DNA of 64,000 bases from Desulfobacteraceae bacterium (GTDB lineage: Bacteria; Desulfobacterota; Desulfobacteria; Desulfobacterales; SKZT01): contig JAABTQ010000004.1 of NCBI GenBank assembly GCA_011389745.1, forward strand, positions 83,007 to 147,006, given 5' to 3'. The notes beneath the pieces were generated by a model, which ran no database searches, was not told the DNA's origin, and saw only the letters and a list, made by a program, of their open reading frames with translations. A program made the position numbers and the translations under genes. Shown one piece after another: positions 13,161-46,138 of this stretch; position 1 is the stretch's first letter; each line of letters opens with the position of its first letter.

Positions 13161-13209
13161 CTCTTGCAATCGGGAGAAATAAATCTTATGATTAAAGCAT
13201 TTATATATG

Positions 13210-14392: not shown

Positions 14393-14413
14393 ATAAATAA
14401 TTATTTCGATTCC

Positions 14414-14455: not shown

Positions 14456-14512
14456 TTTTAATCATTTTATCTGATTTCCTTTCTTCATCTAATACAGTCG
14501 AATTTATTCAGA

Positions 14513-16011: not shown

Positions 16012-16040
16012 CTTTTTTTTATCAAGGAGGTGAAATCATG
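16012..16040 (+). promoter_or_regulatory. Candidate fourU-type RNA thermometer masking the Shine-Dalgarno of the first hsp20 gene
   Basis: CUUUUUU (16012-16018) can pair with AAGGAGG (16024-16030) across the loop UUAUC. That gives 7 bp: 1 G-C, 3 A-U and 3 G-U. The ATG is at 16038. Confidence 0.3.
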
Positions 16041-16514: not shown

Positions 16515-16565
16515 CTTCTGGGAAGGCCGGTGTATGTGGCCTGATTACGAATCAAGGAGGACACA

Positions 16566-16961: not shown

Positions 16962-16991
16962 GAAAAATGTGAGAAAAGGGAGGGATTAAAA

Positions 16992-31493: not shown

Positions 31494-33723
31494 CCCGGCA
31501 ATTATTGAAGGGGATTTGGAACGAATTACATATTACAACCAACAGACCCATTATACAATTGCACGTCTGAAAACCTCCGCAGCAGCCCGGCCCGTGACGA
31601 TAGTCGGATTTTTAGGAGGAATACAACCGGGTGAAACATTAAAAATATCCGGTTTTTGGGAGACCCATCCTAAATATGGGCAGCAGATTCGAGTCAATTC
31701 CTGGGAAGTAAAACTACCGGCCACAATTCAGGGCATTAGAAAATATTTTAAATCCGGCATTATTAAAGGTTTAGGACCTCAATTAACCGATCGCCTGATC
31801 AATCATTTCGGGGACAAGACACTTCAGATTATAGAACATCACTCCGATAGACTTCTGGAAGTCGACGGTATCGGAAAAAGGAAGGCATCCCATATTATAG
31901 ACGCATGGAAAGAGCACCATATCATGAGGGGTCTTATGCATTTTTTGCAGGACATGGGGATAAAATCAACCTATGGAGCAAAAGTTTTTCATACATACGG
32001 AGATCTTTCCCTTAAAGTACTACAGGAAAGCCCCTATCGTTTGGCCGAGGATATTCCTGACTTTGGTTTTCAAATAGCCGATACAATCGCCAGAAAAATG
32101 GGAACTCCGGATGATGATCCCATACGCATCAACGCTTGTATTTTGCATTGTCTTGATAAATATGCCGGCGAAGGTCACTCATTCGCTCTAAAAAAACATT
32201 TAACAATCCGGTGCGAGCATCTTTTTAAATTATACCAGGATGATGTTATCAACGGAATTAATTGCCTCTCTGAATCCGGGCAACTCATTATCGAAACGAT
32301 ACCTTTGGATACTGATGAACCTGATAATTTTGAAAATATCGATGATACTGCCGTTTACAGAAAATCGCTTTACAAAGCCGAATCCGGTATTGCCTCAAGA
32401 ATTGCCGCACTGCTCTCTGTTCCGCTTGAACCTGAAAAAATGGATATTGGTTCTATTCATTCCCAGATTGCCAATCAATTATCCATCAACCTGTCCTCAG
32501 ATCAGCTGGATGTCATAAGAGATTTGTTTTTTCAAAAAGCTGCCATTATAACCGGTGGACCCGGAACGGGAAAAACCACCTTGATCCGCTCAATAGTTGC
32601 AATATTTAAGGCCATAAATAAAAGAGTTCTTTTAGGGGCACCTACCGGACGTGCCGCCAAACGACTTTCTGATGTCTGCCTGGAAAAAGCAACCACTATT
32701 CACAGGCTTTTAGGCTTTACCTATGCCAATGGAAGTTCCGGACAATCCTTTTTTGGAAAAGATCAGGACAATCCACTCGAAGCCGATGTGATCATCATTG
32801 ATGAAGCTTCTATGATTGACACCTCGTTGATGTATCATCTGCTTAACGCTATCTCGCCTTCATCACGTCTGGTTCTGGTGGGTGATGTTTTTCAACTTCC
32901 CTCGGTTGGTCCTGGCAATGTCCTTTCGGACATGATCCGTTCTCAGGCAATCCGGGTTTATTATCTAAATAAAATTTTCCGACAGTCCCGGCAAAGCCGA
33001 ATCATTGTCAATGCACACAAAGTCCGAAATGGTGAATTTCCAGAACTTATTTCCTTTGATGAAAATGAACATTCAACGGAATTTTATTTCCTTGAGAAAC
33101 CAGAACCCAAAAATATTGCCGAAACCATCGTTTCTTTGACTGCTCACATTCTTCCATCTCGTTTTTCTTTTAATCCGGTTTCCGACATCCAGGTTTTAAC
33201 CCCTATGCATAAAGGAGATGCCGGGACAATCAACTTAAACATGCTGCTCCAAAAAGAAATTAACAATTCTTCTACCTATATGGATTCATTGGGACATACA
33301 TTCAAACTTGGTGATAAGGTTATGCACCTTAAAAACAATTATCAAAAAGAAGTTTTTAATGGCGATATCGGGATCATTTGCTCAATGGATTTGCAAAAAA
33401 AAAGACTTTCAGTTAACTATGAGGAACGAATCGTGAATTATGATTATGCGGAGACAGATGAACTTACACTGGCATATGCCATATCGGTTCACAAAGCACA
33501 GGGATCGGAATATCCCGCTGTTATTTTGCCTCTCATAACTCAGCATTACATGCTGCTGCAGCGAAACGTTCTTTATACGGCAATAACCCGGGGAAAAAAA
33601 GTGGTCATCATGGTGGGGACACAAAAGGCATTGAATATCGCGCTCAGTAATGATAAGCCACAAAAAAGACTTTCGGGTCTTTCTTTTCGAATCAAGCAGC
33701 ATCTGAATAATTTTTCGTTATAA
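31462..33723 (+). CDS. recD2: RecD2-type SF1B ATP-dependent DNA helicase
   Basis: N-terminal OB/HhH region, Walker A GGPGTGKTT, IIIDEASMID, LVGDVFQLPSVGPG, and C-terminal AISVHKAQGSEY...YTAITRGK. Confidence 0.85.
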   Translation: MFMRTKQKADSPAIIEGDLERITYYNQQTHYTIARLKTSAAARPVTIVGFLGGIQPGETLKISGFWETHPKYGQQIRVNSWEVKLPATIQGIRKYFKSGIIKGLGPQLTDRLINHFGDKTLQIIEHHSDRLLEVDGIGKRKASHIIDAWKEHHIMRGLMHFLQDMGIKSTYGAKVFHTYGDLSLKVLQESPYRLAEDIPDFGFQIADTIARKMGTPDDDPIRINACILHCLDKYAGEGHSFALKKHLTIRCEHLFKLYQDDVINGINCLSESGQLIIETIPLDTDEPDNFENIDDTAVYRKSLYKAESGIASRIAALLSVPLEPEKMDIGSIHSQIANQLSINLSSDQLDVIRDLFFQKAAIITGGPGTGKTTLIRSIVAIFKAINKRVLLGAPTGRAAKRLSDVCLEKATTIHRLLGFTYANGSSGQSFFGKDQDNPLEADVIIIDEASMIDTSLMYHLLNAISPSSRLVLVGDVFQLPSVGPGNVLSDMIRSQAIRVYYLNKIFRQSRQSRIIVNAHKVRNGEFPELISFDENEHSTEFYFLEKPEPKNIAETIVSLTAHILPSRFSFNPVSDIQVLTPMHKGDAGTINLNMLLQKEINNSSTYMDSLGHTFKLGDKVMHLKNNYQKEVFNGDIGIICSMDLQKKRLSVNYEERIVNYDYAETDELTLAYAISVHKAQGSEYPAVILPLITQHYMLLQRNVLYTAITRGKKVVIMVGTQKALNIALSNDKPQKRLSGLSFRIKQHLNNFSL

Positions 33724-33735: not shown

Positions 33736-34797
33736 ATGCCGAACTCAATTATCACAGCAACCGGCAGTTATTTACCATTGAGAAAAATAACCAACGACTT
33801 TTTTTTGGATCATGATTTTTACGGTACTGACGGAAATAAACTCGAAAGAACCAATGCGGATATAGTTAATAAACTTCTCGAAATTACCGGGATCAAAGAG
33901 AGACGCTATGTCGATGATAATCAGAACACATCGGATATTGCCGGCATAGCTGCGGAAAGGGCATTAGTAAATTTTGACAGGGAACGTCTTGATTACATTA
34001 TAGTCGCACAAAATTTCGGAGACATGACACCTGAAAATAATCGAGTAGATATTGTCCCAACCATTGCTTCCAGAGTTAAACATAAACTAGGAATAAAAAA
34101 TCCCTACACAGTTTGTTTTGACCTTCCATTCGGTTGTCCCGGATGGCTCCAGGGAGCAATTATAGCCGATTATTTCATTAAATCCGGTGATTCAAAATAT
34201 ATACTTGTTATAGGGGCCGAAATACTCTCCCGGGTATCAGATCCGCACGACATCGACAGTATGATATTTGCAGATGGTGCCGGTGCGACCCTTATTGAAT
34301 CTACAGATCAAAATACAGGAATAATGTGTCATGTCACCCGCTCTGATACCTTCAAGGAAGCTTACCTTCTGCGCATGGGACATTCATATAACCCCCATCG
34401 AAACGGCAATGATCAATTCATAAAAATGGATGGCCACCTCATTTACAAATATGCAGTTAGAACAGTCCCTCTGGTCATCAAAAAAAATCTGGAACAAGCA
34501 GGTCTCGGTTTAAGTGATGTTAATAAAATTTTGATTCACCAGGCAAATGAAAAGATGGACATGGCTATTGTCAAAAGGCTGTTCAAATTATACGGCATCA
34601 AAGAAATTGATCCGGACATTATGCCCATGATAATTTGCTGGTCAGGAAACAGTTCCGTGGCAACACTTCCCACGCTTTTAGATTTGATCAAAAGAGGAAA
34701 GCTTGAAAATCATAACTTAAATTCGGGTGATATAATCGTGTTTGCATCGGTTGGCGCCGGAATGAACATTAATTCCATGGTTTATCGGGAGCCCTGA
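33736..34797 (+). CDS. 3-oxoacyl-ACP synthase III (FabH-like KAS III) family protein
   Basis: Cys-His-Asn contexts FGCPGWLQG, LIHQANEKM and GNSSVATLP. Confidence 0.75.
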   Translation: MPNSIITATGSYLPLRKITNDFFLDHDFYGTDGNKLERTNADIVNKLLEITGIKERRYVDDNQNTSDIAGIAAERALVNFDRERLDYIIVAQNFGDMTPENNRVDIVPTIASRVKHKLGIKNPYTVCFDLPFGCPGWLQGAIIADYFIKSGDSKYILVIGAEILSRVSDPHDIDSMIFADGAGATLIESTDQNTGIMCHVTRSDTFKEAYLLRMGHSYNPHRNGNDQFIKMDGHLIYKYAVRTVPLVIKKNLEQAGLGLSDVNKILIHQANEKMDMAIVKRLFKLYGIKEIDPDIMPMIICWSGNSSVATLPTLLDLIKRGKLENHNLNSGDIIVFASVGAGMNINSMVYREP

Positions 34798-34908: not shown

Positions 34909-34957
34909 AAAAAGGCTTTGTTGCAATTCATCTGAATTTTGCGAGCAAAGCCTTTTT
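34909..34957. terminator. Bidirectional terminator (12-bp stem with nested hairpin)
   Basis: AAAAAGGCTTTG (34909-34920) pairs with CAAAGCCTTTTT (34946-34957), with flanking A/T runs. Confidence 0.7.
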
Positions 34958-34976: not shown

Positions 34977-37067
34977 TTACGCGGCAACATCTTTGTTGTA
35001 ACAAATCCGGCAACAAGCCAGGCAACGGTGAGCTTCCCGGATAGCATCTTCTTCCTGAAGCACCAGATCTGCCTCATCAAACGTTTTAATTCTGTCATAG
35101 ACGGGCAACTCCGGCATTTCCGCTCGGTTCTTCTTCTGAATGCCCGGTACTTTCTCAAATATGGATTCTTTAATATGTTTTTTGAAAAGCGCTGACCCAG
35201 GAGCTTTAACTTCTTCACCCGATAAATATTGATGAATCGATCTGGCTGCTCTTCGGCCGCCTCCAATAGCTTCTACTACGAGTGAAGCACCTGTTGCGGA
35301 ATCTCCGGCAGTAAAAATATATGGAATGTTTGTTTGAAGCGTTATGGGATCGACTGCATCGATAGTGTTCCATCGGGTTATGGCGAGTTCCTGAATTCGT
35401 TTGGTGTCAGCATTCATAAAAGAGACATCCGGACCTTGCCCGATTGCAGTAATCAGCATATCGCATTCCATCAGGGTTTCAGAACCTTCCACAGGTACAG
35501 GTCGTCTTCTTCCGCTTGCATCAGGTTCTCCCAATTCCATTTTTAAATATTCCAGGTGGGTAACATGACCGTTTTCATCTCCGATTACCCGTGTGGGAGC
35601 TGCAAGAAATGTAAATTTTATTCCTTCATGTTCTGCAGCAACGATTTCAACCTCGTTGGCCGGCATTTCTTTTCTGGTGCGGCGGTACACAATATTGACT
35701 TCTTCGGCACCTAATCTTACTAAAGTACGCACACAGTCGATCGCTGTATTTCCGCCTCCGATAACCACACACTTTTTACCGATAGGAATCTCTTCATTAC
35801 TTTTACCCTGCTGAGCAGTGGCAAATCGTGTCAAAAAATTAATACCCGTGTAGCATCCTTTAAGATCTTCGCCTTCAACTTTCATATTGTAGTCTTTCCA
35901 AGCGCCCACCCCAAGGAATATGGCATCATAGCCTGCAGCGACAAGTGATCCGACAGTAAAATCCTTTCCAAGTTTTACACTGGTTTTGGCTTCGATTCCC
36001 AAATTAAGTATACCATCGATCTCCCATTTCAGCACCTTTTTTGGCAGACGATATTCGGGGATTCCATAACGGATCATACCACCCAGCTCAGGATTGTCAT
36101 CAAACACGGTAACTGAATGACCAAGCCTTTTAAGAAAAAATGCACAACTCAAACCCGCGGGTCCACCACCAACCACAGCAACTTTTTTTCCGGTGTCAGG
36201 AGCGACGGATATATGTAAACGCTTTCCTGAATTCATTTCATAGTCAGCGGCAAAGCGTTTCAATTGATTAATGGAAACGGCTTCATCTTCAATACCTCTG
36301 CGGCAAAAATCTTCGCAAGGATGCGGACATACCCTTCCACAAGAAAGAAGCAATGGATTCCTCTCTCTGATTGTATGCACGGCTCCTTCATAATCTCCCT
36401 CCCGAATCTGAGAAATATATTTGGGAATATCGATTTCAGCAGGACAGGTCTGCTGACACGGGCCGAGTGCATCTTCTTCCTTGTTTAACTCAAGGAGCCG
36501 TTGCGACATGGTTCTGATTTTTATTATACTCTTGGGACAGACCCGTTCACAGGCTCCGCATCCGACGCATTTTTCTTCAATAACAACCGGAAACCCATCA
36601 GGCCCCATTTCAATGGCATCAAATGCACAAGCAGTTATGCAATCACCCAATCCAAGACATCCGATCGTACACACCCTTTTTCCATCGTATAAAGCGGAAA
36701 GCGCACTGCAACTTTGGACACCCATATAATAGTATTTGTCATCCGCTCTGAAACCTCCGGTACACGTGTTTATGGAGCGAAGCGGCTCGGCAGTCCCTGG
36801 ATCAAGCCCCATCACCGCCGCAACATTGGCGGCACCTTCGGGCCCTGCAACCACACACACACTTGGAAGAGCCTCACCTTTGACCACGGCGCCAGCAGCC
36901 TGGGAACATCCCGCAAATCCGCATCCACCGCAATTTGCACCCGCCATTTTGTCTTCGACTTCAGCAATTCTGGGATCTTCATATACATAGAAGACTTTAC
37001 TGGCAGCACTTAATATACTTCCGCAGGATACCCCCAATCCCAACATAAATAGAACGGCTTCTATCAC
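34977..37067 (-). CDS. rnfB: RnfB fused to a GltD/NfnB-type NAD(P)H-FAD iron-sulfur oxidoreductase module
   Basis: Start GTG at 37067, 5 nt after AAGGAGG and just past the rnfA stop (the track starts at 37106). RnfB part: TM helix, NCGGCGFAGC, CTIGCLGLGDCITAC, CVGCGACERVCP. GltD-like part: CGRVCPHPCEDFC, KVAVVGGGPAGLSCAFFL, KKCVVIGGGNTAIDCVRTLVRLGAEEVNIVYRRTRKEMPA. Confidence 0.85.
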   Translation of the reverse strand: MIEAVLFMLGLGVSCGSILSAASKVFYVYEDPRIAEVEDKMAGANCGGCGFAGCSQAAGAVVKGEALPSVCVVAGPEGAANVAAVMGLDPGTAEPLRSINTCTGGFRADDKYYYMGVQSCSALSALYDGKRVCTIGCLGLGDCITACAFDAIEMGPDGFPVVIEEKCVGCGACERVCPKSIIKIRTMSQRLLELNKEEDALGPCQQTCPAEIDIPKYISQIREGDYEGAVHTIRERNPLLLSCGRVCPHPCEDFCRRGIEDEAVSINQLKRFAADYEMNSGKRLHISVAPDTGKKVAVVGGGPAGLSCAFFLKRLGHSVTVFDDNPELGGMIRYGIPEYRLPKKVLKWEIDGILNLGIEAKTSVKLGKDFTVGSLVAAGYDAIFLGVGAWKDYNMKVEGEDLKGCYTGINFLTRFATAQQGKSNEEIPIGKKCVVIGGGNTAIDCVRTLVRLGAEEVNIVYRRTRKEMPANEVEIVAAEHEGIKFTFLAAPTRVIGDENGHVTHLEYLKMELGEPDASGRRRPVPVEGSETLMECDMLITAIGQGPDVSFMNADTKRIQELAITRWNTIDAVDPITLQTNIPYIFTAGDSATGASLVVEAIGGGRRAARSIHQYLSGEEVKAPGSALFKKHIKESIFEKVPGIQKKNRAEMPELPVYDRIKTFDEADLVLQEEDAIREAHRCLACCRICYNKDVAA

Positions 37068-37083
37068 AGCAACCTCCTTGGTT

Positions 37084-37659
37084 TTATACCATGCCTTTAA
37101 AAGCAAAAAATGTCAGAGATAAAACGCCTGCCGTTACAAGACCTATGGAAGTATCCTGAAGTGGTTGTGGGACCCTACCCAATACGACACGCTCTCGAAC
37201 CCCTGCAAAGAGAATCAGTGCGAATCCAAAACCCACCGCATAAGATATTGCGGAAATCAGGGCCTGAATAAACCCGTATTCTTCGTTGATGTTAATCAGA
37301 CAAACACCCATAACCGCGCAGTTGGTGGTGATTAAAGGGAGAAATATGCCAAGACCGGCATAAAGAGCAGGTATACTTTTTTTAAGAAACATCTCCACAA
37401 ACTGAACCAAAGATGCAATGACGAGAATAAAAGCGATGGTTCTTAAATATTGTAACCCGAATTTATTAAGGAAAAAGGTATTGACAACCCAGGTGATTAT
37501 CCCAGCCATTGTTAATACGAATATTACCGCAAATGCCATACCTACAGCGGTTTCCATCTTTTTTGTCGTTCCAAGAAACGGACAGGCACCCAGGTATTGT
37601 GCCAAGATGATGTTATTTATGAATATACAGCTGATAATGAGAACTATATAATCGCCCAT
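37084..37659 (-). CDS. rnfA: Rnf complex membrane subunit A
   Basis: FINNIILAQYLGACPFLGTTKKMETAVGMAFAVIFV, 6 TM, position in the rnfCDGEAB order. Confidence 0.9.
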   Translation of the reverse strand: MGDYIVLIISCIFINNIILAQYLGACPFLGTTKKMETAVGMAFAVIFVLTMAGIITWVVNTFFLNKFGLQYLRTIAFILVIASLVQFVEMFLKKSIPALYAGLGIFLPLITTNCAVMGVCLININEEYGFIQALISAISYAVGFGFALILFAGVRERVVLGRVPQPLQDTSIGLVTAGVLSLTFFAFKGMV

Positions 37660-37682
37660 GATTTTCTCCTAAATCTTATAGC

Positions 37683-38276
37683 TTATTTTTTTCCAATGAA
37701 ATTCATAACACAGAGCATAAGGCCGAGTCCGATAAATGCGCCCGGTGCCTCGAGCATAAAGGCAAAGGGCTCAAAGGATGCCCCGGTAACATCTATTCCA
37801 AGTACCGTTCCGCTGCCCAGCAATTCTCTTACAGCGCCCAATGAGCCTAATGCCAGGGTAAAACCAATACCGATACCAAGACCATCGGCGATTGAAGGCA
37901 CTACACTTCTTTTAAATGCAAAAGCCTCACTTCTACCGAGCACAATACAGTTGACCACAATAAGAGGTATAAAAATACCTAGCGCAAGAAAGAGTGGATA
38001 GGCAAATGCCTGCATGAGCAATTCGACTACTGTAACAAACGTAGCAATGATGACAATAAAACAAGCAATTCTGACCTTTGCCGGTATGATATTTCTCAGT
38101 AGAGATACCAGAGTATTTGCGCATACCAGCACAAAGGTCGTGGCAATACCCATACCGATACCATTCTCGACCGATTTTGTCACCGCGAGGGTAGGACACA
38201 AACCTAAAACAAGTCTGAACGGTGGTATCTCTTCCCATAATCCTTTGACAAATTCCTGAGCTAATGTTTTGGCCAT
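37683..38276 (-). CDS. rnfE: Rnf complex membrane subunit E
   Basis: FRLVLGLCPTLAVTKSVENGIGMGIATTFVL; paralogue of RnfA in the canonical position. Confidence 0.9.
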   Translation of the reverse strand: MAKTLAQEFVKGLWEEIPPFRLVLGLCPTLAVTKSVENGIGMGIATTFVLVCANTLVSLLRNIIPAKVRIACFIVIIATFVTVVELLMQAFAYPLFLALGIFIPLIVVNCIVLGRSEAFAFKRSVVPSIADGLGIGIGFTLALGSLGAVRELLGSGTVLGIDVTGASFEPFAFMLEAPGAFIGLGLMLCVMNFIGKK

Positions 38277-38304
38277 AATTCTCTCCCTGGAATAGCTATC
38301 GCCT

Positions 38305-38898
38305 TTAGAAGGTTTTTATTTTTTCCAAAATCTGATCTTTATTTTCCAAATAAACTTTGGCGGCATCTGTTGCGGCATTGGCTACAGCTCTAGATGTTAT
38401 CGTTGATCCGCTTATAATGTTAATGGTACCCCCATCGTTTGTAACCTTTATCGGGCTGTCAATGCTCTTTGCCTTGAACTGTGATACAAAAGAGGGATCC
38501 TCCTTGGCTTTCGCTCCCATTCCAGGAGTTTCTGCGTGTGTTGTCACCGATACGCCGTGAATGGTGTCATTTTCCACATTGATGGCAACCATAACGCCCA
38601 CATCACCGCCATATCCTTTACCGAAAGCTTCCAGAGCGACCGTATTGGCCTTGCCGTCAAATTTACCGATAAAAAAGTCTTTCTCGGTCTCGGTCTCCCC
38701 AACGGCCATTTTAAAGCGGTCGGCAACAGGGTCATTGGAAGAACCCACCATGATTTCTTTAATGGCCGGTCCTTTAACAAAATTTAGCTGTGCCACCTCT
38801 ATTCTCTCCTTGGTCCCATTGCGGATTGAAGCCAAAAGACCACCGGAAAAAGAAGCCAGCACCGTTAAAACAATAACCATTTTCATCATATCACGCAT
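38305..38898 (-). CDS. rnfG: Rnf complex subunit G (periplasmic FMN-binding)
   Basis: Track ORF extends to 38952. ATG at 38898 lies 1 nt after the rnfD stop, with AAGGTGGA upstream. TM anchor; FMN_bind-type motif ISGSTITSRAV. Confidence 0.85.
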   Translation of the reverse strand: MRDMMKMVIVLTVLASFSGGLLASIRNGTKERIEVAQLNFVKGPAIKEIMVGSSNDPVADRFKMAVGETETEKDFFIGKFDGKANTVALEAFGKGYGGDVGVMVAINVENDTIHGVSVTTHAETPGMGAKAKEDPSFVSQFKAKSIDSPIKVTNDGGTINIISGSTITSRAVANAATDAAKVYLENKDQILEKIKTF

Positions 38899-38899
38899 A

Positions 38900-39859
38900 T
38901 CAGTCCACCTTTCCAAGTGCTTTGGGTCTAATTTTTTCAAATATCGGGGCAAGCAAATTTATGAGCAGGATTGCAAACAAGACACCATCGACATAAGCTC
39001 CGATGTTTCTGATCAATATGGTCATAAACCCGCCGACCAAACCGTAGATCAGCATGGGAATAAAGTTGACAGGCGAAGATGAATCCTCGGGTGCCAGAAA
39101 AAAAGCTCCGATCAGGGTATACCCGGTAAACAGATGAAACATAGGTCCGGCGTATTGATCAGGGTTGACCACGTTAAATATCAATGCGGTGATAACAACG
39201 CCGGCAAGAAAAGACAATGAGATTTCCCATCGGATAAAACCGCGAATAATCAAATAGATACCGCCTAAAACGAGCCCGAGACCAAATGTAGACCCGATGC
39301 CTCCGGTTTGTTTTGCCATAAGCAGATCACCAGGTGTAAATCCCTGTGTTCCTGCAGCGCCAAATGACTTTAGTGCAGTCAGTGGATAAATAGCATCGAA
39401 TCCAAAATCAAAATTGACCAGCGCCACATTAAAATCAAAGTAATCTTTCCAGCCGATAAACAAAATGAGCGCCCCAAGAACTACGGGATTAAAAGGATTA
39501 CTTCCGATACCACCAAATATTTGCTGCCCCACAACAACGGCAAAGAATGTTCCGGTGATGACAAACCACCAGGGAACCGTCGCCGGAAGCAACATGGCAA
39601 AAACCAGACCGATTACCGCAGCATTTCCGTCACCAATGGTTTTCTCGCTTTTTCGGAGAACATTGATAACCAGTTCCCATAAAATGGCTGAAGATACCGA
39701 AAGCGCGACAACCGCGACTGCGGGTATGCCGTACTGAAAAAGCCCCATAAGAACGGCCGGTAAAGCTGCCAGCAAAATGTGATAGTTTCGGGTGGGAACC
39801 CTGCTTCCGTCATGAATAAATGGAGCGTGTGAGACGATAAGTTTTTTCTGACTATACAT
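38900..39859 (-). CDS. rnfD: Rnf complex membrane subunit D (NqrB-like)
   Basis: HAPFIHDG..., FGGIGSNPFNP, GAFFLAPEDSSSP. It overlaps the rnfC stop by 8 nt. Confidence 0.9.
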   Translation of the reverse strand: MYSQKKLIVSHAPFIHDGSRVPTRNYHILLAALPAVLMGLFQYGIPAVAVVALSVSSAILWELVINVLRKSEKTIGDGNAAVIGLVFAMLLPATVPWWFVITGTFFAVVVGQQIFGGIGSNPFNPVVLGALILFIGWKDYFDFNVALVNFDFGFDAIYPLTALKSFGAAGTQGFTPGDLLMAKQTGGIGSTFGLGLVLGGIYLIIRGFIRWEISLSFLAGVVITALIFNVVNPDQYAGPMFHLFTGYTLIGAFFLAPEDSSSPVNFIPMLIYGLVGGFMTILIRNIGAYVDGVLFAILLINLLAPIFEKIRPKALGKVD

Positions 39860-41126
39860 GCTCTGCCTCCGCTAATCTTATCCGATCAAGTTCATATTTC
39901 GCCAATCTTATGTATTGAAAGATCGGAATTTTGGCTACACAGACAAAACTGCAAAGACCACATTCAATGCAGGAGTTCAAATCGTAATTATTTTCCGCTT
40001 CCTCATAATGACCGGGTTCCAGAAGCCGGACAATCATGTTGACCTGCATCCGTGCAGGGCAGATTCTGACACATTCTCCGCAATTAACACAGGGATATTC
40101 CGACGACAAAGGAACATTATCCTTATCCTGTATCATGATCGCATTGGTGTCGGACAGTATCGGATGATCTTCGGAATAAATCGCGGAACCGGTTAACGGG
40201 CCGCCGAATATCACCTGGTCTTTATCATTGATTGTAATATCACAAGCTTTAAACACCTCACTGACAGGAGTACCGATCCTGACCGAAACGAGCGTGGTGC
40301 TTCCATCTTTTCTGATAAGTGTCAGTATTTTATCCGTCGGAATTTTGCCTGTATCCATTGCGGTGCCTATTGATGCTACCGCCTCCGCCGATATAAAGCA
40401 GTATCCCAAATTTTCCGGTTTTTTGCCGGCCGGCACAACTTGCCCAAACAGATTTTTGATAATCATTTTGGGTTGTGCCATTGGATACTGACTGCCGACA
40501 ACCTTAACCTCGATACCGGCTGCCAAGGCCATCGCCGCAAGTCTTTCGGGCGCCACCAACACAATCGAATTTATACCGGTAAACTTACCAACAGCCGCAA
40601 TACCTGATTTGAGCGCCTTTAATCGGGATTGTACAACATACTGGTTTGTCGTGACCGCTATGTCTTCATCCATGCCATTGACAATTATCGTATGGATATC
40701 AACATCGGGATGCTTGAAATTTTTCAGCGGAGGACTTCCCGGTACAGCCGATAAGTACCTGATAGCACTCTCCAATGAAATTTCTTTGGCAATGTCGGAA
40801 AACTGCTCATCATACTCCTCATCCTTTGCCACATCCATTGTAATTGCAGTGAAGTTTCGGCCAAAATCCCCTGCCCAACCGGATAAGTCAGATACGGTAC
40901 CGGTAACCGGGGAAGTTGCATAAATATCTTTGGCCGTAGTAACCAATTGCCCGGTTTTCAGCAGATCCCCTTTTTTCAGGTCTCCATTGCCTCTATCCAA
41001 AGGGCTTTCCAGCAATAATTTTATCTGGCTGGGTTTGGAAACCTCTATCAGAGCGGGATCTAAATCTGTGAGGACAGTATAATCAATCCGGGGCTTAACC
41101 AGACCAATGAAAGATTTTTTAATCAT
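39852..41126 (-). CDS. rnfC: RnfC-like subunit retaining two [4Fe-4S] motifs but lacking recognisable NADH/FMN motifs
   Basis: N-terminal barrel (GDLLKTGQLV...SPVTGTVSDL) and C-terminal CVNCGECVRICP plus CIECGLCSFVC. Where GGAGFPT and NGAECEPY are expected, it reads LSAVPGSPPLKNF and NGMDEDIAVTT. Confidence 0.8.
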   Translation of the reverse strand: MIKKSFIGLVKPRIDYTVLTDLDPALIEVSKPSQIKLLLESPLDRGNGDLKKGDLLKTGQLVTTAKDIYATSPVTGTVSDLSGWAGDFGRNFTAITMDVAKDEEYDEQFSDIAKEISLESAIRYLSAVPGSPPLKNFKHPDVDIHTIIVNGMDEDIAVTTNQYVVQSRLKALKSGIAAVGKFTGINSIVLVAPERLAAMALAAGIEVKVVGSQYPMAQPKMIIKNLFGQVVPAGKKPENLGYCFISAEAVASIGTAMDTGKIPTDKILTLIRKDGSTTLVSVRIGTPVSEVFKACDITINDKDQVIFGGPLTGSAIYSEDHPILSDTNAIMIQDKDNVPLSSEYPCVNCGECVRICPARMQVNMIVRLLEPGHYEEAENNYDLNSCIECGLCSFVCVAKIPIFQYIRLAKYELDRIRLAEAEHV

Positions 41127-41189
41127 AGCCTAACCTTTTTGTTGTTTCGCCGAATCAGGTTAAAAGTCTTAAAATCTGAAGTCCAACGG

Positions 41190-41684
41190 CTATTTCAGAT
41201 GGCATCCATTACATTCCTGAGGACCGGCTTCGTTTTCCGTATGGCATCCGATGCACTGTCCATGAAATGCATCCGTCTGCATCATTGCCGACATTTCATC
41301 AACGTTATCGTGACAATCGTAGCAACTCTCTGCCGCGTAATAGCGCATGCCATCTTTAGTCTCGACTTCGAGCCCTTCATGATCTTCAACCTCGTGGCAG
41401 CTCAGGCAGGATTCTGCAAATCCTCCCTCCACATTTATGTGACACTCTCCACAAGATGATGTTTCTCCACCATGATGGTGGCAGCTATAGCAATCTATGC
41501 TATAACCGGCTTCCAACATGTGGGTTTTGTGAGTAAACAAAACATTTCCCGCTACACCTTCATAAACAATCCTTAAGGGCTCATCAGGTGTCTTAGCGGA
41601 AAAAGCCGTAAAGCTTATCACACCCACAAGGAACAAAACGATTGCCACTCCATAGGCCATCTGTAGTTCTTTTTTTGAAGTCAT
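41190..41684 (-). CDS. Membrane-anchored hexaheme cytochrome c
   Basis: N-terminal hydrophobic anchor and six CxxCH motifs: CYSCH, CGECH, CLSCH, CYDCH, CIGCH, CNGCH. It lies 63 nt upstream of rnfC on the same strand. Confidence 0.85.
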   Translation of the reverse strand: MTSKKELQMAYGVAIVLFLVGVISFTAFSAKTPDEPLRIVYEGVAGNVLFTHKTHMLEAGYSIDCYSCHHHGGETSSCGECHINVEGGFAESCLSCHEVEDHEGLEVETKDGMRYYAAESCYDCHDNVDEMSAMMQTDAFHGQCIGCHTENEAGPQECNGCHLK

Positions 41685-41924: not shown

Positions 41925-43592
41925 TTACTTTTTTTTACAAGCACCGCATATAGTGCAGGATCCTTTAATCGGACAGGGAGGAGATGTTTTTTCATTCAAG
42001 GCCTGATGATATTCTTTTAACAGAAAAGATTTGTCTATACCATGGTCAATAAAATCCCAGGGGAATATTTCATCTTCAAAACGTTTTCTAAGTACATAAA
42101 AATCAGGATTTAAGGTGGATTCCTTGAAGGTTTTAGGCCAATTTTCCTGATTTTTCACCGATTGCACAATCAGCGTTGAAACTTTTCGATCAGCTCTGGA
42201 AAAAAGCCCCTGCAAAGACGCCCATTTGGGCATGTCTGCATGAACCCTGACATTAGGAACTTTCCTGAGTCCGTCTTTCACCATTTTAATTTTTTTCTTC
42301 AGTGTTGAAATGTCATCCATGGCTGCCCACTGAAATGGTGTTAACGGTTTGGGCACAAAAGAATTTACGCTGACCGTGATTTCTCCGATACGCTTTTGGG
42401 GCCTGCTAAATTTGAGAAAGGCATGCTTGATTTTTTTGCACATAGTCACGATGGCCTGAACATCCTCTGTTGTTTCAGTCGGAAGCCCTACCATAAAATA
42501 TAGTTTCAGGTTTGGGATTCCCGCGGCCACGAGAGTTTCAACACCGGAAAGAATATGGTCAGAAGTGATACCCTTGTTAATAACATTTAACATTCTCTCT
42601 GAGCCGGCATCAGGAGCAATTGTTGCTGTTTTTATACTGCTTTTTTTAAGAACATGAACAAGCTCACCGGAAAGTGAATCGGCCCTGAGAGAACTGAATG
42701 AGAGCTGCAGATTTTTCTCATGTGCCAGAGCGCACAACCTTTCGATGTCGGGATGATCAGAAACCGCGGCTCCCATAAGTCCGACCTGATTTGTAATGCA
42801 GGCCCCTGTTGTTATATTTTCGGCCAACAGACTCAATGGCCTGAAACGGGGAGGCCGATATATAAACCCTGCACTGCAAAAGCGGCACCCATGGGCACAT
42901 CCTCTGGACACTTCTATGAGAAAGGTGTCTGCGAATGTTGTGTCGTCGGTTAATAGTGTACTGGTAGTGGAAAAATCAGAGAGGTCTTTGATGCGAATTT
43001 TCGGAATTGTTTCCGGAACATCCTCTATGGATTCAAAAGCCGAAAGCGTGCCATTGTCATGATAGCTTACCTTATAAAATGACGGAACATAAATTCCCGG
43101 CACACTGCGGGCAATTTTAACCATGCGATCATGTCGATTCTCTGCCGGATCATATAATTTGAAAAATTCATCCAGCATTCCCTCGGACTCACCCAGAAAG
43201 AAAAGATCGAAAAAGGGGGCGATAGGCTCAGGATTTGAAAAACATGCTACACCGCCCCCGACAATGAGAGGATGGTTATCGGACCTGTGGTCCGATAACC
43301 AGGGAATCCCGCAAGAACGCAGAATATTCAGAATGTTAGGAAAATCATTTTCAAAAGATACGGAAAAAGCGACGATATCAAAATCTTTAAAGGCACTTCC
43401 CGACTCTATTGACACATGGCCTTTGGATCCACGGTGATCCTCAGCTAAAAACGCCCTTTCGCACACCACATGATCTATCCTGTTGAGTTGTGCATAAACC
43501 GTTTGGAATCCCAGATTGCTCATGCCCAATTGATAAAGATTGGGATAAACCAGGCAAACCGAAATTCGATTTTTCCAAACCTTTCTAACCAC
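41925..43592 (-). CDS. B12-binding-domain radical SAM protein (TIGR03960-like)
   Basis: SRGCAHGCRFCSAG (CxxxCxxC) after an N-terminal B12-binding-like region (VCLVYPNLYQLGMSNLGFQ). GTG start lies 31 nt after the ftsZ stop. Confidence 0.8.
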   Translation of the reverse strand: MVRKVWKNRISVCLVYPNLYQLGMSNLGFQTVYAQLNRIDHVVCERAFLAEDHRGSKGHVSIESGSAFKDFDIVAFSVSFENDFPNILNILRSCGIPWLSDHRSDNHPLIVGGGVACFSNPEPIAPFFDLFFLGESEGMLDEFFKLYDPAENRHDRMVKIARSVPGIYVPSFYKVSYHDNGTLSAFESIEDVPETIPKIRIKDLSDFSTTSTLLTDDTTFADTFLIEVSRGCAHGCRFCSAGFIYRPPRFRPLSLLAENITTGACITNQVGLMGAAVSDHPDIERLCALAHEKNLQLSFSSLRADSLSGELVHVLKKSSIKTATIAPDAGSERMLNVINKGITSDHILSGVETLVAAGIPNLKLYFMVGLPTETTEDVQAIVTMCKKIKHAFLKFSRPQKRIGEITVSVNSFVPKPLTPFQWAAMDDISTLKKKIKMVKDGLRKVPNVRVHADMPKWASLQGLFSRADRKVSTLIVQSVKNQENWPKTFKESTLNPDFYVLRKRFEDEIFPWDFIDHGIDKSFLLKEYHQALNEKTSPPCPIKGSCTICGACKKK

Positions 43593-43623
43593 ACCGGTTT
43601 CGGAAAGGATATGATTTCTAATC

Positions 43624-44859
43624 TTAGTCAGCTCTTCTTCTCAAAAATGTCGGTATATCCAGGTCGCTATTGTCGATCACGAGCCCTTTATAATTTTTAT
43701 AGGGTGAAGTTTCTGAACCATCAGCAGGTCTTTGATTTCGGACAAATGTCGGAACATCATAGTTGACGGCTCTTTCCAAATCTGCGGGGGTAAGATCACG
43801 AACCTTACCCCTTATTTTTCTGTCCCGGAATCTTTCGGGCATGGCGGAGTCGGCATCCGTGCCGATGCCCGTGGCGATAACCGTCACACGAATTTCATCA
43901 CCCATTGTATCATCTACAGCTGTACCCCATATGATATCCGCATCTTCACCAACTTCACGGTAAATACGGTCTGAAGCCTGAGTCATTTCTTCCATTGTCA
44001 ATGAACTTGTTGAGGTAATATTCATCAATACACCTTTGGCTCCGGCAACGGATATGTCTTCAAGAAGCGGGTGTGAAATAGCACGTTCAGCAGCCTCGAC
44101 AGCCCTGTTTTCTCCGGATGCCACACCAATTCCCATAAGAGCCAGGCCGGCTTTTGACATGGTCTCCTTGACATCGGCAAAGTCCAGGTTAATCAATCCG
44201 GGAAGCATAATCAAATCAGTGATTCCCTTAACCGAGTGAAGCAAAATTTCATCAGCTTTCCTAAACATGGCCAACATGGTGGAGTCTTTTTCTGAAATTC
44301 CGCGAAGCCGGTCATTTGGAATTGTTATGACGGTATCTGCAACTTCCTTAAGAGCATAGATACCCTCTTCGGCCTGGTGTGCCCTTTTTTTCCCTTCAAA
44401 GGTAAAAGGCTTAGTTATAACCGCTACGGTTAAAATTTTGAGTTCTCTGCAGATTTCTGCAATAACAGGTGCAGCGCCCGTACCTGTACCACCTCCGAAA
44501 CCCGCTGTGATAAAAACCATATGGCTCCCTGACAAAGCATTTCTTATGGCTTCCTCATTTTCCATAGCCGACTCACGGCCTTTAGCCGGATTATTGCCGG
44601 CACCCAGTCCCTCGGTCAGCTTTTCACCCAGCTGAATCTTTAACGGTGCTCTGGACTTGTGCAGTGCCTGGGCATCCGTATTTGCCGCGATAAAATCAAC
44701 GCCTCTCAAGTCACCATCGATCATGTTGTCAATGGCATTACCGCCACCTCCTCCTACCCCGATCACCTTGATTCTGGCCATCGTATCCCTTTGCCTCGTC
44801 TGAGCACCAACATACGTAAAAGATGACATTTCCCCCCCTCCATTGTCTTTGATTGTCAT
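43624..44859 (-). CDS. ftsZ: Cell division GTPase FtsZ
   Basis: IKVIGVGGGGGNAIDNM, GGGTGTGAAPVIAE, C-terminal DIPTFLRR. Two strong RBS/ATG options (44859 and the in-frame MSSF start). Confidence 0.95.
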   Translation of the reverse strand: MTIKDNGGGEMSSFTYVGAQTRQRDTMARIKVIGVGGGGGNAIDNMIDGDLRGVDFIAANTDAQALHKSRAPLKIQLGEKLTEGLGAGNNPAKGRESAMENEEAIRNALSGSHMVFITAGFGGGTGTGAAPVIAEICRELKILTVAVITKPFTFEGKKRAHQAEEGIYALKEVADTVITIPNDRLRGISEKDSTMLAMFRKADEILLHSVKGITDLIMLPGLINLDFADVKETMSKAGLALMGIGVASGENRAVEAAERAISHPLLEDISVAGAKGVLMNITSTSSLTMEEMTQASDRIYREVGEDADIIWGTAVDDTMGDEIRVTVIATGIGTDADSAMPERFRDRKIRGKVRDLTPADLERAVNYDVPTFVRNQRPADGSETSPYKNYKGLVIDNSDLDIPTFLRRRAD

Positions 44860-44911
44860 AGCTTTGCCTCCTCCATTTTTTACATCCCATTGTTTATTGT
44901 CTCTTTACCAT

Positions 44912-46138
44912 TCAAATAATTTCCCTGAACCATTTTTTCATCCTTGCCACCAACCTGGCGAAAATGTTTGCATCCCGAATTCTAAATTTTTGAGGATTAT
45001 GATTCTTGGCGCCATACAGGAGCAACCCAACACCCGTGGCGTACATGGGATTGTTAACCACATCCACCAGCCCACTGATTCCTCTCGGCTGCCCCAGCCT
45101 TGCCGGAAGATGAAAAACCGACTCTGCAACATCGGTAATTCCATCCAAAAGAGCAGAACCTCCTGTGATAACAATACCCGATGGTATGAGATTTTCCACT
45201 CCTGCCCGATATAATTCTCTTCTTATCAAAGCAAAAATCTCTTCAACTCTAGGCTCCATGATTTCTCCCAGAATTTGTCTCGGCAGCTTACGTGGCGGCC
45301 TTCCACCCATACCCGGAACCTCGATGTTTTCATTACCTTTAATTTTGGCGGCCAGGGCGGTACCATATTTTATTTTGATTTTTTCAGCCTCCGCAAGAGG
45401 TGCTCGAAGTCCGATAGCAATATCGTTGGTTAAATTATACCCCCCAAGTGATAATACAAATGTATGATGGATATTTTTACCGGAGAATATCGCCAGATCA
45501 CTGGTGCCTCCCCCCATATCAATCAGGGCCGTACCTAATTCTTTTTCTTCTTCTGTAAGCACGGCATCACCGGATGCCAATGATTCCAACACAATGTCAC
45601 AAACATCAAGACCAGCGCGGTTAGCACATTTTACGATATTATGAGCCGAAGTTACCGCTCCGGTTACTATGTGAATTTTAGCTTCCAGGCGAACACCCGC
45701 CATACCAATGGGATTGTTAATACCCGCTTGTTCATCCACTATGTACTCCTGAGGTAAAACATGAATCAACTCCCGGTCCATGGGAATTGCCACAGCACGT
45801 GCAGCCTCTATAACACGATCTACATCATGTTGCGTCACTTCATGCCCTTTAATGGCAATAATCCCGTGGCTGTTAAAACCTGTGATGTGGCCACCGGCTA
45901 TTCCGGCATAGACCGAAGAGATTTCGCATCCGGCCATCAACTCAGCTTCTTCCACAGCTCTTTTGATGGAATCCACTGTCGCTTCAATATTGACGACCAC
46001 ACCTTTTCTCAGACCTATTGACGGATGAGTTCCGATACCAATAATATTGATATCACTTGGATTGACTTCGCCTACAACCGCACAGATTTTTGTGGTACCT
46101 ATGTCGAGACCCACGATGATATTATCCTGTCCCTTCAA
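44912..46138 (-). CDS. ftsA: Cell division protein FtsA
   Basis: Actin-like ATPase: IVGLDIGTTKICAVVGE, DMGGGTSDLAIF. Confidence 0.95.
   Translation of the reverse strand: MKGQDNIIVGLDIGTTKICAVVGEVNPSDINIIGIGTHPSIGLRKGVVVNIEATVDSIKRAVEEAELMAGCEISSVYAGIAGGHITGFNSHGIIAIKGHEVTQHDVDRVIEAARAVAIPMDRELIHVLPQEYIVDEQAGINNPIGMAGVRLEAKIHIVTGAVTSAHNIVKCANRAGLDVCDIVLESLASGDAVLTEEEKELGTALIDMGGGTSDLAIFSGKNIHHTFVLSLGGYNLTNDIAIGLRAPLAEAEKIKIKYGTALAAKIKGNENIEVPGMGGRPPRKLPRQILGEIMEPRVEEIFALIRRELYRAGVENLIPSGIVITGGSALLDGITDVAESVFHLPARLGQPRGISGLVDVVNNPMYATGVGLLLYGAKNHNPQKFRIRDANIFARLVARMKKWFREII

Follow-up and report, generated by a model that had tools for sequence, protein, structure and literature searches.

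Where do electrons enter and leave an Rnf complex whose RnfC subunit has apparently lost its NADH site and whose RnfB subunit carries one? The question is raised by an operon in a 64,000-nucleotide stretch of a Desulfobacteraceae genome (contig JAABTQ010000004.1; here, the window). A first-pass annotation, made from the sequence alone, had pointed to three deviations from the usual Rnf. These were an RnfC that keeps its Fe-S motifs without the GGAGFPT and NGAECEPY signatures, an RnfB fused to a complete GltD/NfnB-type FAD and NAD(P)H module, and a co-encoded multiheme cytochrome c. As an account of structure, this reading stands. Its implied novelty does not, as the three deviations, and the cytochrome as an extra point of electron entry or exit, had already been published (PMC5109826; PMC11887813 and its supplement).

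Architecture and identity of the operon

Seven open reading frames on the minus strand, between 34977 and 41684, form one operon in the order that had been annotated (Table 1). They encode a hexaheme cytochrome c, RnfC, D, G, E and A, and an RnfB-GltD fusion; all six Rnf subunits (RnfA, B, C, D, E and G) are matched by both Pfam and NCBIfam. The fusion (34977-37067, minus strand; 696 amino acids) most likely starts at 37067, not at 37106, with a GTG that follows an AAGGAGG ribosome-binding site. The start of rnfG is most likely at 38898, an ATG just past the rnfD stop. The cytochrome gene lies 63 bp upstream of rnfC. At the other end, a hairpin (free energy -20.4 kcal/mol; z-score -3.0 against shuffles) is probably a bidirectional terminator that marks the end of the operon. 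The operon holds no apbE (rnfF), no rseC adjoins it (one is present at 18 of 80 loci), and Pfam and NCBIfam found no FNR or Fer2 family domain in its products.

Table 1. Features of the operon, in order of transcription (window coordinates)
Feature	Position	Strand	Basis
Hexaheme c3-family cytochrome c, first gene; N-terminal hydrophobic anchor or uncleaved signal	41190..41684	(-)	six CxxCH; PF02085
RnfC variant: RnfC fold, two [4Fe-4S] motifs, FMN/NADH site lost	39852..41126	(-)	profiles, motif alignment, AF2 model
RnfD variant: covalent-FMN threonine replaced, as is the FMN pocket; riboflavin ligands largely kept	38900..39859	(-)	PF03116, alignments
RnfG, periplasmic FMN subunit; flavinylation motif ISGSTIT retained	38305..38898	(-)	NF045876, alignment to solved RnfG chains
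RnfE, canonical	37683..38276	(-)	E 7e-59 to A. woodii RnfE
RnfA, canonical	37084..37659	(-)	E 9e-60 to A. woodii RnfA
RnfB module, residues 1-~199: TM helix, N-terminal 4-Cys 'FeS' domain, 2x[4Fe-4S] ferredoxin domain	36471..37067	(-)	PF04060, Fer4 families
GltD/NfnB-type module, residues ~200-632: Fer4_20 (2x[4Fe-4S]), FAD site GGGPAG, NAD(P)H site GGGNTAID...VYRRTRKEMPAN	35172..36470	(-)	PF14691, PF07992
C-terminal extension ending in RCLxCCxxC, Cys682/685/686/689 (696-aa numbering)	34977..35171	(-)	cysteine conservation
Probable bidirectional terminator: hairpin between A-run and U-run; operon end	34909..34957	(-)	lies between convergent rnfB-gltD and fabH-like genes

This architecture already has a name. 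The Rabus group (2016, 2025) called it the "Desulfobacula toluolica Tol2-type Rnf" or "Rnf2" (Wohlbrand et al., 2016, Proteomics, cited in PMC5109826; PMC11887813) and reports it from every Desulfobacteraceae genome. As described there, RnfB is ~700 amino acids long with a pyridine-nucleotide oxidoreductase domain, a cytochrome c3 gene lies in the cluster, and RnfC has neither the FMN-binding signature of NADH-ubiquinone oxidoreductase nor an SLBB domain (PMC5109826; PMC11887813). The window operon shares every described feature, and nothing essential differs. Its fusion, at 696 residues, combines PF04060, Fer4, PF14691 and PF07992, and neither PF10531 nor PF13375 was detected in its RnfC. The same architecture is found elsewhere in the Desulfobacterales, with fusion proteins that are 64-92% identical in Desulfobacula, Desulfocicer, Desulfosudis and many Desulfobacterales MAGs; Desulfocicer vacuolatum DSM 3385, a Desulfobacula sp., Desulfosudis oleivorans and others have the same gene order. 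From this shared architecture and the match to the published description, the window operon is almost certainly an orthologue of the Desulfobacteraceae Rnf2, or Tol2-type, complex. The annotation had known of no characterized Rnf of this combination; indeed, no biochemical characterization of the Rnf2 type was found in the literature, although the architecture itself had been described. What is added here is the loss of the covalent-FMN site in RnfD.

Nor is the fusion an artefact of assembly. The full gene set (cytochrome, rnfCDGEA and RnfB-GltD) recurs in 65 of the 74 assessable genome loci. The cytochrome and rnfCDGEA precede the fusion at 55 of 80 genome loci and follow it at 10; at nine, the fusion has no rnf neighbours. 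RnfC relatives that share only 27-47% identity among themselves show the same architecture in six of the seven contexts, and its distant carriers include Spirochaetota and Syntrophales. The arrangement is more than a chance one. Proteomics of other strains found Rnf2 to be abundant and constitutive (PMC11887813); in D. multivorans, published proteomics saw the cluster cytochrome in one growth condition only.

Cofactor sites, subunit by subunit

In the fusion, the RnfB part is matched over residues 17-204 by 7zc6_B (E 9e-46), and its cysteines are all 100% conserved. Residues ~192-651 match GltD/NfnB-type modules, best in the PDB 9n5u_A (a chain of NfnABC; E 1e-125), 9bov_A and 8oh5_C. The module is complete, as had been claimed: NF009410 scores 501 bits, and conservation of the FAD and NAD(P)H motifs is 95% or higher. 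It carries the YRR (2'-phosphate) motif typical of NADPH-binding GltD/NfnB relatives, which suggests that NADPH is probably its preferred substrate. With the modules of NfnAB, NfnABC and StnABC it shares Fer4_20 and the FAD and NADPH-type Rossmann motifs (against solved chains of NfnABC, Stn and NfnB, E 1e-125 to 1e-95). Unlike them, it is fused to a membrane-anchored RnfB, and no gene for an NfnA, GltB or NuoEF-like partner lies within the operon. In 9n5u_A and 9bov_A, the part aligned to the C-terminal extension runs on into the next Fe-S domain; the four cysteines of the extension are 100% conserved across 121 sequences.

RnfC, conversely, has lost a site. Its score against TIGR01945 is 181 bits, below the cut-off of 246; its match to Complex1_51K, at 39.9 bits, is above the Pfam cut-off of 31.2 and is partial (profile positions 24-148 of 150). 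Its AF2 model (pLDDT 93) gives Foldseek TM-scores of 0.77-0.82 to RnfC structures and 0.67-0.70 to full-length NqrA. Alignment to solved RnfC structures places a deletion of some 10 residues ("SAVPGSPPL") where the glycine-rich loop GGAxFPT would be; NGAECEPY is replaced by NGMDEDIA and YPQGAEKQL by YPMAQPKMI, and the equivalents of ECEPY, GAE and NVxT are all replaced. The loss belongs to the family: over 100 clusters at 50% identity conserve the pattern, and both GGAxFPT and ECEPY are missing from every neighbouring RnfC that could be extracted, from ~60 of the genome loci. The two CxxCxxCxxxCP motifs are kept, and their eight cysteines are invariant across the family, down to 27% identity. 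The annotated signature losses are thus real and family-wide.

RnfD (PF03116, E 9e-85) has changed in a way that the annotation overlooked, a fourth deviation that covaries with the other three. The threonine that carries covalent FMN (T156 in A. woodii; T153 in C. tetanomorphum) is a tyrosine in the window, and this column reads Y, A, H, F or D in the family. Elsewhere in the pocket, R130 is A, E185 is S, G237 is Y and S284 is L; all five C. tetanomorphum FMN-pocket residues (R130, T153, E185, G237, S284) are replaced in close and distant members. As judged from the alignments, then, the covalent-FMN site is lost and the whole pocket is remodelled across the family. RnfD may still bind a flavin non-covalently. 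Of the riboflavin ligands, N123 is kept and D249 is E (residue roles from PMC9588780 and PMC11889175). No report of this loss was found in the accessible literature. Both RnfD and RnfC having lost a flavin site, the usual route back from RnfG to NAD, by way of RnfD and then RnfC, is two flavins short.

The remaining Rnf subunits look conventional. RnfG passes NF045876 (RnfG_DVU2794) with 233 bits, above the cut-off of 205, and a GAT or GST flavinylation motif is present in 57 of 62 RnfG orthologues. RnfE conserves its cluster-ligand cysteines (LCPTLAV, VNCIVLG) and the EAFAF glutamate, and RnfA its cysteines in ACPFLG and TTNCAV. Together they keep the four [2Fe-2S] cysteines and several of the residues named around the Na+ path by PMC11889175, which assigns Na+ pumping to RnfA/E and only electron transfer to RnfD.

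The cytochrome matches PF02085 (Cytochrom_CIII) at E 1e-9. It had been called membrane-anchored; its N-terminus is indeed hydrophobic and shows no good signal-peptidase site, which makes anchoring plausible and no firmer than that. Orthologues lie directly upstream of rnfC at 59 loci with 4-8 heme motifs each, most having four, five or seven where the window cytochrome has six; those of distant relatives have 4-16. A c3-type gene stands alongside the operon at these 59 genome loci and in six of seven distant contexts, and the cytochrome is part of the conserved cluster.

Likeness to known systems

To canonical Rnf (A. woodii 9eri, C. tetanomorphum 7zc6, A. vinelandii 8ahx), the operon is similar in its six homologous subunits, its rnfCDGEAB order, the [2Fe-2S] ligands of RnfA/E, the RnfG flavinylation site and RnfC's pair of [4Fe-4S] clusters. 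It differs in lacking the FMN/NADH site of RnfC and the covalent-FMN site of RnfD, in an RnfB that has gained FAD, NAD(P)H and two further clusters, and in the added cytochrome c.

Na+-NQR offers a different parallel, having a pyridine-nucleotide dehydrogenase at the RnfB/NqrF position and an RnfC/NqrA subunit without a flavin and NADH site. The window dehydrogenase, however, is of the GltD type (FAD and 2x[4Fe-4S]) on a real RnfB, whereas Nqr uses an FNR-type NqrF with a plant-type [2Fe-2S]. Window RnfC keeps clusters that NqrA has lost, NqrB keeps a covalent FMN that window RnfD does not, Nqr has no cytochrome, and an Nqr-type quinone site is conjecture here. Membership in Na+-NQR was rejected on the GltD-type module, the eight RnfC cysteines, and Nqr equivalog scores that all fall far below their cut-offs.

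Methanosarcina acetivorans Rnf-MmcA also has a multiheme cytochrome c encoded upstream of rnfC, makes no use of NAD at RnfC, and has RnfG as the proposed donor to the cytochrome. The archaeal RnfB, however, is simply a polyferredoxin and carries no NAD(P)H module, ferredoxin is the sole donor, and methanophenazine is the acceptor. A Methanosarcina-type Rnf was rejected, as no NCBIfam rnfA-G_Methano equivalog model reaches its cut-off and GltD is attached to RnfB. The Desulfovibrio operon dhcA-rnfCDGEABF opens with a co-transcribed gene for a c3-family multiheme cytochrome, and the RnfG model that window RnfG passes is of the DVU2794 type; that operon, however, includes apbE (rnfF). By its published description, the Desulfovibrionaceae complex belongs to Rnf1, in which RnfB is small and RnfC standard (PMC11887813). 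DhcA reportedly showed no fitness phenotype, in an operon reported as the other Rnf type.

A proposed path for electrons

The functions that the annotation suggested (an NAD(P)H:cytochrome c oxidoreductase, its reverse, or a three-way hub) are reasonable as proposals. Tentatively, we favor an ion-coupled NAD(P)H(/ferredoxin):cytochrome c3 oxidoreductase from which electrons leave at RnfG; the gene content, the cofactor motifs and the way these are conserved and covary are observed, and substrates, direction and ion coupling are all inferred. Here, NAD(P)H, probably NADPH, would reduce the FAD of the GltD module, and reduced ferredoxin may be a second input at the RnfB clusters. The [4Fe-4S] clusters of GltD and RnfB would then relay electrons to the [2Fe-2S] centre lying between RnfA and RnfE, whose reduction and re-oxidation would move Na+ (or H+) outward in the canonical manner. 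The next stop would be the covalent FMN on periplasmic RnfG. Because RnfD is without its periplasm-side FMN and RnfC without its FMN/NADH site, electrons would exit there, to the co-encoded multiheme cytochrome c3 and on to the periplasmic cytochrome pool, Qrc, menaquinone and sulfate reduction. Reverse running, from cytochrome c to NAD(P)+, might also occur, and the RnfD riboflavin site and the two invariant RnfC clusters could be a second module for some other partner. The Rabus group had already proposed, for Rnf2, a reduction of cytochrome c3 that feeds Qrc (PMC11887813).

The intact FAD and NAD(P)H module with its YRR motif and invariant cluster cysteines, the canonical RnfA/E and the retained RnfG flavinylation motif all speak for this path, as do the FMN-pocket replacements in RnfD, the missing RnfC signatures, the accompanying c3-type gene and the published abundance of Rnf2. 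Against it, the invariant RnfC cysteines and largely kept riboflavin ligands are not accounted for by a simple exit; there are also a possible non-covalent flavin in RnfD, the loci whose fusion has no rnf neighbours, the D. multivorans cytochrome seen in a single condition, and the lack of a DhcA fitness phenotype in Desulfovibrio. Further, the potentials of NAD(P)H and of c3 hemes lie close together, which would leave little driving force for pumping, unless the donor is ferredoxin or the hemes lie relatively positive.

A stricter form of this hypothesis is possible, if more doubtful. Both flavins of the return path (FMN on RnfD, FMN on RnfC) would be gone, and Rnf2 would act as an NAD(P)H(/ferredoxin):cytochrome c3 oxidoreductase working one way across the membrane, an electron being exported along with Na+/H+ via RnfA/E, with no U-shaped wire from cytoplasm to cytoplasm and with the RnfD-riboflavin/RnfC-cluster half repurposed as a separate redox module. 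If true, the core genome of dominant marine sulfate reducers, and also Spirochaetota and Syntrophales, would hold an uncharacterized class of respiratory ion pump.

Alternative paths

The Nqr parallel suggests that the U-shaped path may persist. Electrons from NAD(P)H would then enter at RnfB-GltD, cross to RnfG and return through RnfD, by its riboflavin and perhaps with the help of a heme relay or a flavin bound non-covalently, to the RnfC clusters. From there they would reach a cytoplasmic or membrane acceptor more positive than NAD(P)H (DsrC, some other Fe-S protein, or a quinone at RnfD, for example), with the cytochrome as only a side branch. In its favour are the invariant RnfC cysteines, the persistence of N123 (with D249 as E), an RnfC fold that docks as in RnfC/NqrA, and the Nqr arrangement, in which the NADH module takes the position of RnfB and a cofactor-poor subunit that of RnfC. 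The path is nevertheless unlikely. The FMN-D pocket is remodelled at five of five described positions, including a bulky tyrosine at G237, which leaves a long gap between RnfG FMN and riboflavin; the operon has no conserved candidate gene for an acceptor, and the cytochrome is conserved too consistently for an incidental role. A role for the RnfC clusters would also come from a three-way hub, in which the GltD FAD bifurcates as in NfnB, Stn and NfnABC, sending NADPH electrons down a membrane/cytochrome branch and a low-potential ferredoxin branch that might run via the C-terminal CxxCCxxC site and RnfC, or confurcates in reverse. The closest solved relatives of the module are, after all, the NADPH-binding modules of bifurcating NfnABC and StnABC (9n5u_A, 9bov_A, 8oh5_C), the four C-terminal cysteines are invariant, and NuoE/NuoF-GltD-like genes lie just downstream of the fusion in some distant loci. 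We consider the hub improbable, as non-bifurcating GltD modules exist (in glutamate synthase, for example), no NfnA-like [2Fe-2S]/FAD partner is present, cluster binding by the C-terminal cysteines is conjecture, and the RnfB and RnfC clusters are 25 to >30 Å apart in solved Rnf structures.

The simplest version of a site that has moved is classical Rnf chemistry with its ends exchanged, ferredoxin delivering electrons to exposed RnfC clusters and NAD(P)+ being reduced at RnfB-GltD. This explains both the kept clusters and the new NAD(P)H site. In the RnfA/E mechanism, however, flow from the RnfC side to the RnfB side couples to ion influx, so that exergonic flow from ferredoxin to NAD(P)+ would dissipate the gradient. 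The exchange also requires an RnfG-RnfD link that is apparently broken, leaves the cytochrome no role, and seems very improbable. Hardly credible is an ordinary ferredoxin:NAD+ Rnf with GltD and cytochrome as accessories, its RnfC binding FMN and NADH through diverged residues. The RnfC-like fold and the above-threshold Complex1_51K match point that way; set against them are the deleted glycine-rich loop and the replaced ECEPY, GAE and NVxT equivalents, throughout the clusters counted above.

Operon organization

The seven reading frames of the Rnf2 operon are closely spaced, with intergenic distances running from an 8-bp overlap up to 63 bp. A ribosome-binding site lies upstream of the rnfB GTG and of each of the remaining starts. 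From this tight packing and from the conserved synteny of these genes, we infer that those of the window probably form a single operon. After the last stop of rnfB-gltD, examination by eye and folding identified a hairpin with A and U runs on its flanks (-20.4 kcal/mol, z -3.0). A convergent fabH-like gene lies just beyond, and the hairpin between the two genes is likely a bidirectional terminator. A scan of the operon for promoter and terminator consensus sequences missed this hairpin and returned counts at the level of shuffled sequence. No Rex box (TTGTGAAnnnnTTCACAA, with three mismatches or fewer) was found upstream of the operon; matches were rarer than chance.

Features of the Rnf2 operon and its flanks in the window
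Feature	Coordinates	Strand	Remark
Upstream flank	41925-46138	-	identified by eye
Cytochrome c	41190-41684	-	ORF
rnfC	39852-41126	-	ORF
rnfD	38900-39859	-	ORF
rnfG	38305-38952	-	ORF; probable start 38898
rnfE	37683-38276	-	ORF
rnfA	37084-37659	-	ORF
Long rnfB (rnfB-gltD)	34977-37106	-	ORF; probable start 37067
RCLxCCxxC of the fusion	34977-35020	-	last ~15 codons
Hairpin	34909-34957		by eye and folding
fabH-like gene	33736-34797	+	convergent
Downstream flank	31462-33723	+	identified by eye

As judged by eye, ftsZ, ftsA and an ORF containing a radical-SAM-type CxxxCxxC motif lie in the upstream flank, the downstream flank holds a large gene that resembles a helicase and has a P-loop motif, and the immediate neighbours of the operon in the window include no further respiratory genes.

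The cytochrome, RnfC and the RnfB-GltD fusion

The first-pass annotation had described a hexaheme cytochrome c, an RnfC that keeps its Fe-S motifs but lacks GGAGFPT and NGAECEPY, and an RnfB that carries a full GltD/NfnB-type module. As a whole the observation stands, gene content included. The cytochrome has six CxxCH motifs, a hydrophobic N-terminal segment and a match to Cytochrom_CIII.

RnfC carries two CxxCxxCxxxCP cluster motifs. It scores 181 bits against TIGR01945, where the cut-off is 246, and its match to the Complex1_51K profile is confined to positions 24-148. Alignment to three solved RnfC chains places the GGAxFPT loop inside a deletion of about 10 residues; the same alignment has NGMDEDIA where NGAECEPY is expected and YPMAQPKMI for YPQGAEKQL. 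AlphaFold2, run with 81 sequences of the family, gave a confident model (pLDDT 93, pTM 0.92) whose TM-scores are 0.77-0.82 to RnfC and 0.67-0.70 to full-length NqrA. The fold of RnfC is retained, while its cofactor and substrate signatures are lost. GGAxFPT and ECEPY are also absent from every extractable neighbouring RnfC (about 60 loci), which have conserved patterns of their own, LPGxP and DxDL. An exhaustive search with RnfC returned over 100 clusters (50% identity) with both cluster motifs and neither signature; canonical RnfC sequences surface only below about 145 bits. These same losses rule out a motif drift limited to one genome. One protein of 761 aa (P0311) joins a motif-less RnfC to RnfD (PF03116), and is apparently an RnfC-RnfD fusion.

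In the RnfB-GltD fusion, 696 aa long, residues 1 to ~200 match RnfB (7zc6_B, E 9e-46) and residues ~192-651 form a complete GltD/NfnB-type module. Among solved structures, this module finds its best relatives in the bifurcating complexes NfnABC and StnABC, whose NADPH-binding modules it matches with E 1e-125 to 1e-110. Conservation is 95% or higher for all Fe-S cysteines, GGGPAG, GGGNTAID and VYRRTRKEMPAN. The YRR motif, by analogy with its GltD/NfnB relatives, suggests that the substrate would be NADPH. At the C-terminus, the four cysteines of RCLxCCxxC are 100% conserved in 121 sequences; the motif aligns to the stretch where NfnABC/Stn homologues run into a further Fe-S domain, and may represent an additional cluster or serve for docking. 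The fusion is no product of misassembly or chance: more than 120 protein clusters (72-95% identity) align to it end to end, all its cysteines are conserved, and it recurs in all 80 loci returned from species-representative genomes.

A published type of Rnf

The annotation had also implied that the architecture is new. It is already in print (PMC5109826, PMC11887813) as Rnf2, and the operon of the window belongs to this type without special features. The structural part of the annotation's rewiring hypothesis (signatures lost, GltD fused, cytochrome added) is upheld, and its novelty is not. The portion of Dorries et al. (2016; PMC5109826) that summarizes Wohlbrand et al. (2016) describes this architecture, with the cytochrome in the cluster, and assigns to D. 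multivorans and D. autotrophicum both a Tol2-type and an A. woodii-type Rnf. The contents of Pereira et al. (2011) and of Wohlbrand et al. (2016) are taken here as related in PMC5109826, PMC4287179 and PMC11887813. The name Rnf2, and its place in the Desulfobacteraceae core genome, come from a 2025 study (PMC11887813), in which Rnf2 was abundant and constitutive in six strains. That study proposes that oxidation of ferredoxin (and perhaps of NADH) delivers electrons to cytochrome c3, and from there to Qrc, menaquinone and Qmo.

Linkage of a cytochrome to rnf genes is known also in Desulfovibrio (dhcA) and in Methanosarcina (MmcA); the Desulfovibrionaceae Rnf is, on the statement of PMC11887813, of the Rnf1 type. 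In line with the annotation's remark that no Rnf complex with this combination has been characterized, the literature searched yielded no biochemical characterization of an Rnf with an RnfB-GltD or large RnfB. A 2025 review of Rnf and Nqr mentions neither Rnf2, Desulfo-, sulfate nor cytochrome c.

Distribution

Almost all of the 80 fusion loci belong to Desulfobacterales; Desulfocicer vacuolatum DSM 3385, Desulfosudis oleivorans, Desulfobacula, Desulfamplus and an Olavius symbiont are among them. In 55 loci, rnfCDGEA immediately precedes the fusion, and 49 of those 55 have the cytochrome too, giving the complete set. The order fusion-cytochrome-rnfCDGEA occurs in 10 of the 80, nine have no rnf neighbours, and six are too truncated to judge.

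Seven distant RnfC contexts (27-47% mutual identity), from Spirochaetota, Syntrophales and metagenomes, were also compared. A fusion of 671-718 aa immediately follows rnfA in six of the seven, and a c3-family cytochrome with 4-12 hemes immediately precedes rnfC in six; the remaining one has a 16-heme cytochrome nearby. The co-occurrence that the annotation proposed to look for is thus found: motif-less RnfC, fusion and cytochrome covary across phyla.

The flavin site of RnfD

In canonical RnfD, FMN is covalently attached to a threonine, which is T156 in A. woodii and T153 in C. tetanomorphum, and this FMN acts as relay between the RnfG FMN and riboflavin (PMC9588780, PMC11889175). In the window, RnfD has Tyr at this position (near residue 158), and the column in the Rnf2 family holds Y, A, H, F or D. 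The other residues described around the FMN by Vitt et al., R130, E185, G237 and S284, are identical in A. woodii. In the Rnf2 family, R130 is replaced by hydrophobic residues, E185 by S or A, G237 by Tyr (60 of 62 sequences) and S284 by V, L or I. The distant loci have the same replacements, so that across all loci compared (L001-L087) all five described residues are changed. The riboflavin ligands are mostly kept, with N123 retained and D249 replaced by E.

This apparent loss of the flavin site is a fourth deviation, absent from the first-pass annotation. The Rnf2 literature found makes no mention of it, and PMC11887813 calls the remaining subunits "very similar"; it is newly noted here.

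In contrast, RnfG, RnfA and RnfE are conventional. RnfG retains its flavinylation motif. The similarity of RnfA and RnfE to their A. woodii counterparts is about as high as could be expected (E ~1e-59); the four cysteines of the [2Fe-2S] centre are all conserved, as are several of the residues that have been named along the Na+ path.

A model for electron flow

In canonical Rnf, electrons from RnfB reduce the [2Fe-2S] centre of RnfA/E with uptake of Na+ from the cytoplasm, and their transfer onto the RnfG FMN leads to release of Na+ outside (PMC11889175). RnfD serves only the electron return: its FMN and riboflavin pass the electron on to the clusters of RnfC, from where it reaches the FMN of that subunit and NAD+ (PMC11889175). 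The Rnf2 operon keeps the input and pump half intact and extends it with an FAD and NAD(P)H module, its return half is without both FMNs, and a multiheme cytochrome is added on the same side as the RnfG FMN. Taken together, these features speak for an NAD(P)H(/ferredoxin):cytochrome c3 oxidoreductase with ion coupling, in which electrons would exit at RnfG and whose reaction would be reversible in principle. The RnfD loss sharpens this testable model of Rnf2.

An exit at RnfG has a weak point: the conservation of the RnfC clusters, and of the riboflavin ligands in RnfD, implies that the RnfC/RnfD half does something. One rival is an Nqr-like U-shaped path to an acceptor more positive than NAD(P)H; another is a bifurcating three-way hub working through the C-terminal cysteine site of the fusion. 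A polarity-swapped ferredoxin:NAD(P)+ enzyme is disfavoured, because in the conserved mechanism of RnfA/E an electron flow from RnfC to RnfB goes with an influx of ions. That RnfC has a cryptic NADH site is very unlikely.

A large share of organic-carbon oxidation in marine sediments is reportedly due to Desulfobacteraceae. To learn whether Rnf2 connects NAD(P)H or ferredoxin with the periplasmic cytochrome pool would fill a gap for complete-oxidizing sulfate reducers, namely how cytoplasmic electrons reach sulfate reduction and how energy is conserved. Rnf2 also offers a natural experiment that parallels the transition from Rnf to Nqr; here, the dehydrogenase sits at the RnfB position and the RnfC and RnfD flavins are apparently lost. 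The window itself adds one more copy of an already described gene cluster. The interest that remains lies in Rnf2 as a type still uncharacterized, and in its RnfD.

Neighbouring genes at other loci

The fusions without rnf neighbours (L044, L052, L053, L055, L057, L062, L065, L068 and L076, with flanks of up to 8 kb, shorter for L057 and L065) are mostly labelled Desulfatiglandales or Desulfatiglans. Upstream of the fusion, L062 has metF/metV-like methylene-THF reductase genes and a 1305-aa GltD/HdrA-like flavoprotein.

An RseC/MucC-family gene adjoins the Rnf2 operon in 18 of the 80 genome loci and in four of the seven distant ones (L083-L086); tblastn gave no match to it within the window. 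At 17 of these genome loci it closely precedes the cytochrome gene (L034, L035, L037, L039-L041, L043, L047, L048, L051, L054, L056, L058, L059, L061, L064 and L078), and at the eighteenth, L021, it is downstream of the fusion. RseC has been linked to Rnf function in Clostridium ljungdahlii. The cytochrome-rnfCDGEA operon of L083 is without an adjacent rnfB, and after it comes rseC, which is on the other strand; that genome presumably encodes RnfB at another site.

Among the distant contexts, L081 (Spirochaetota, 12113-16320) has two RnfB-GltD fusion genes in tandem. NuoE-like and NuoF/NuoG/GltD-like genes, reminiscent of Stn/NfnABC, directly follow the fusion in this same region and in L082 (14393-17296) and L084 (14014-17155). 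In L087, a Syntrophales MAG (14270-17142), the genes after the fusion encode a second RnfG-like (FMN_bind) protein and a protein in which MFS is fused to the flavin transferase ApbE.
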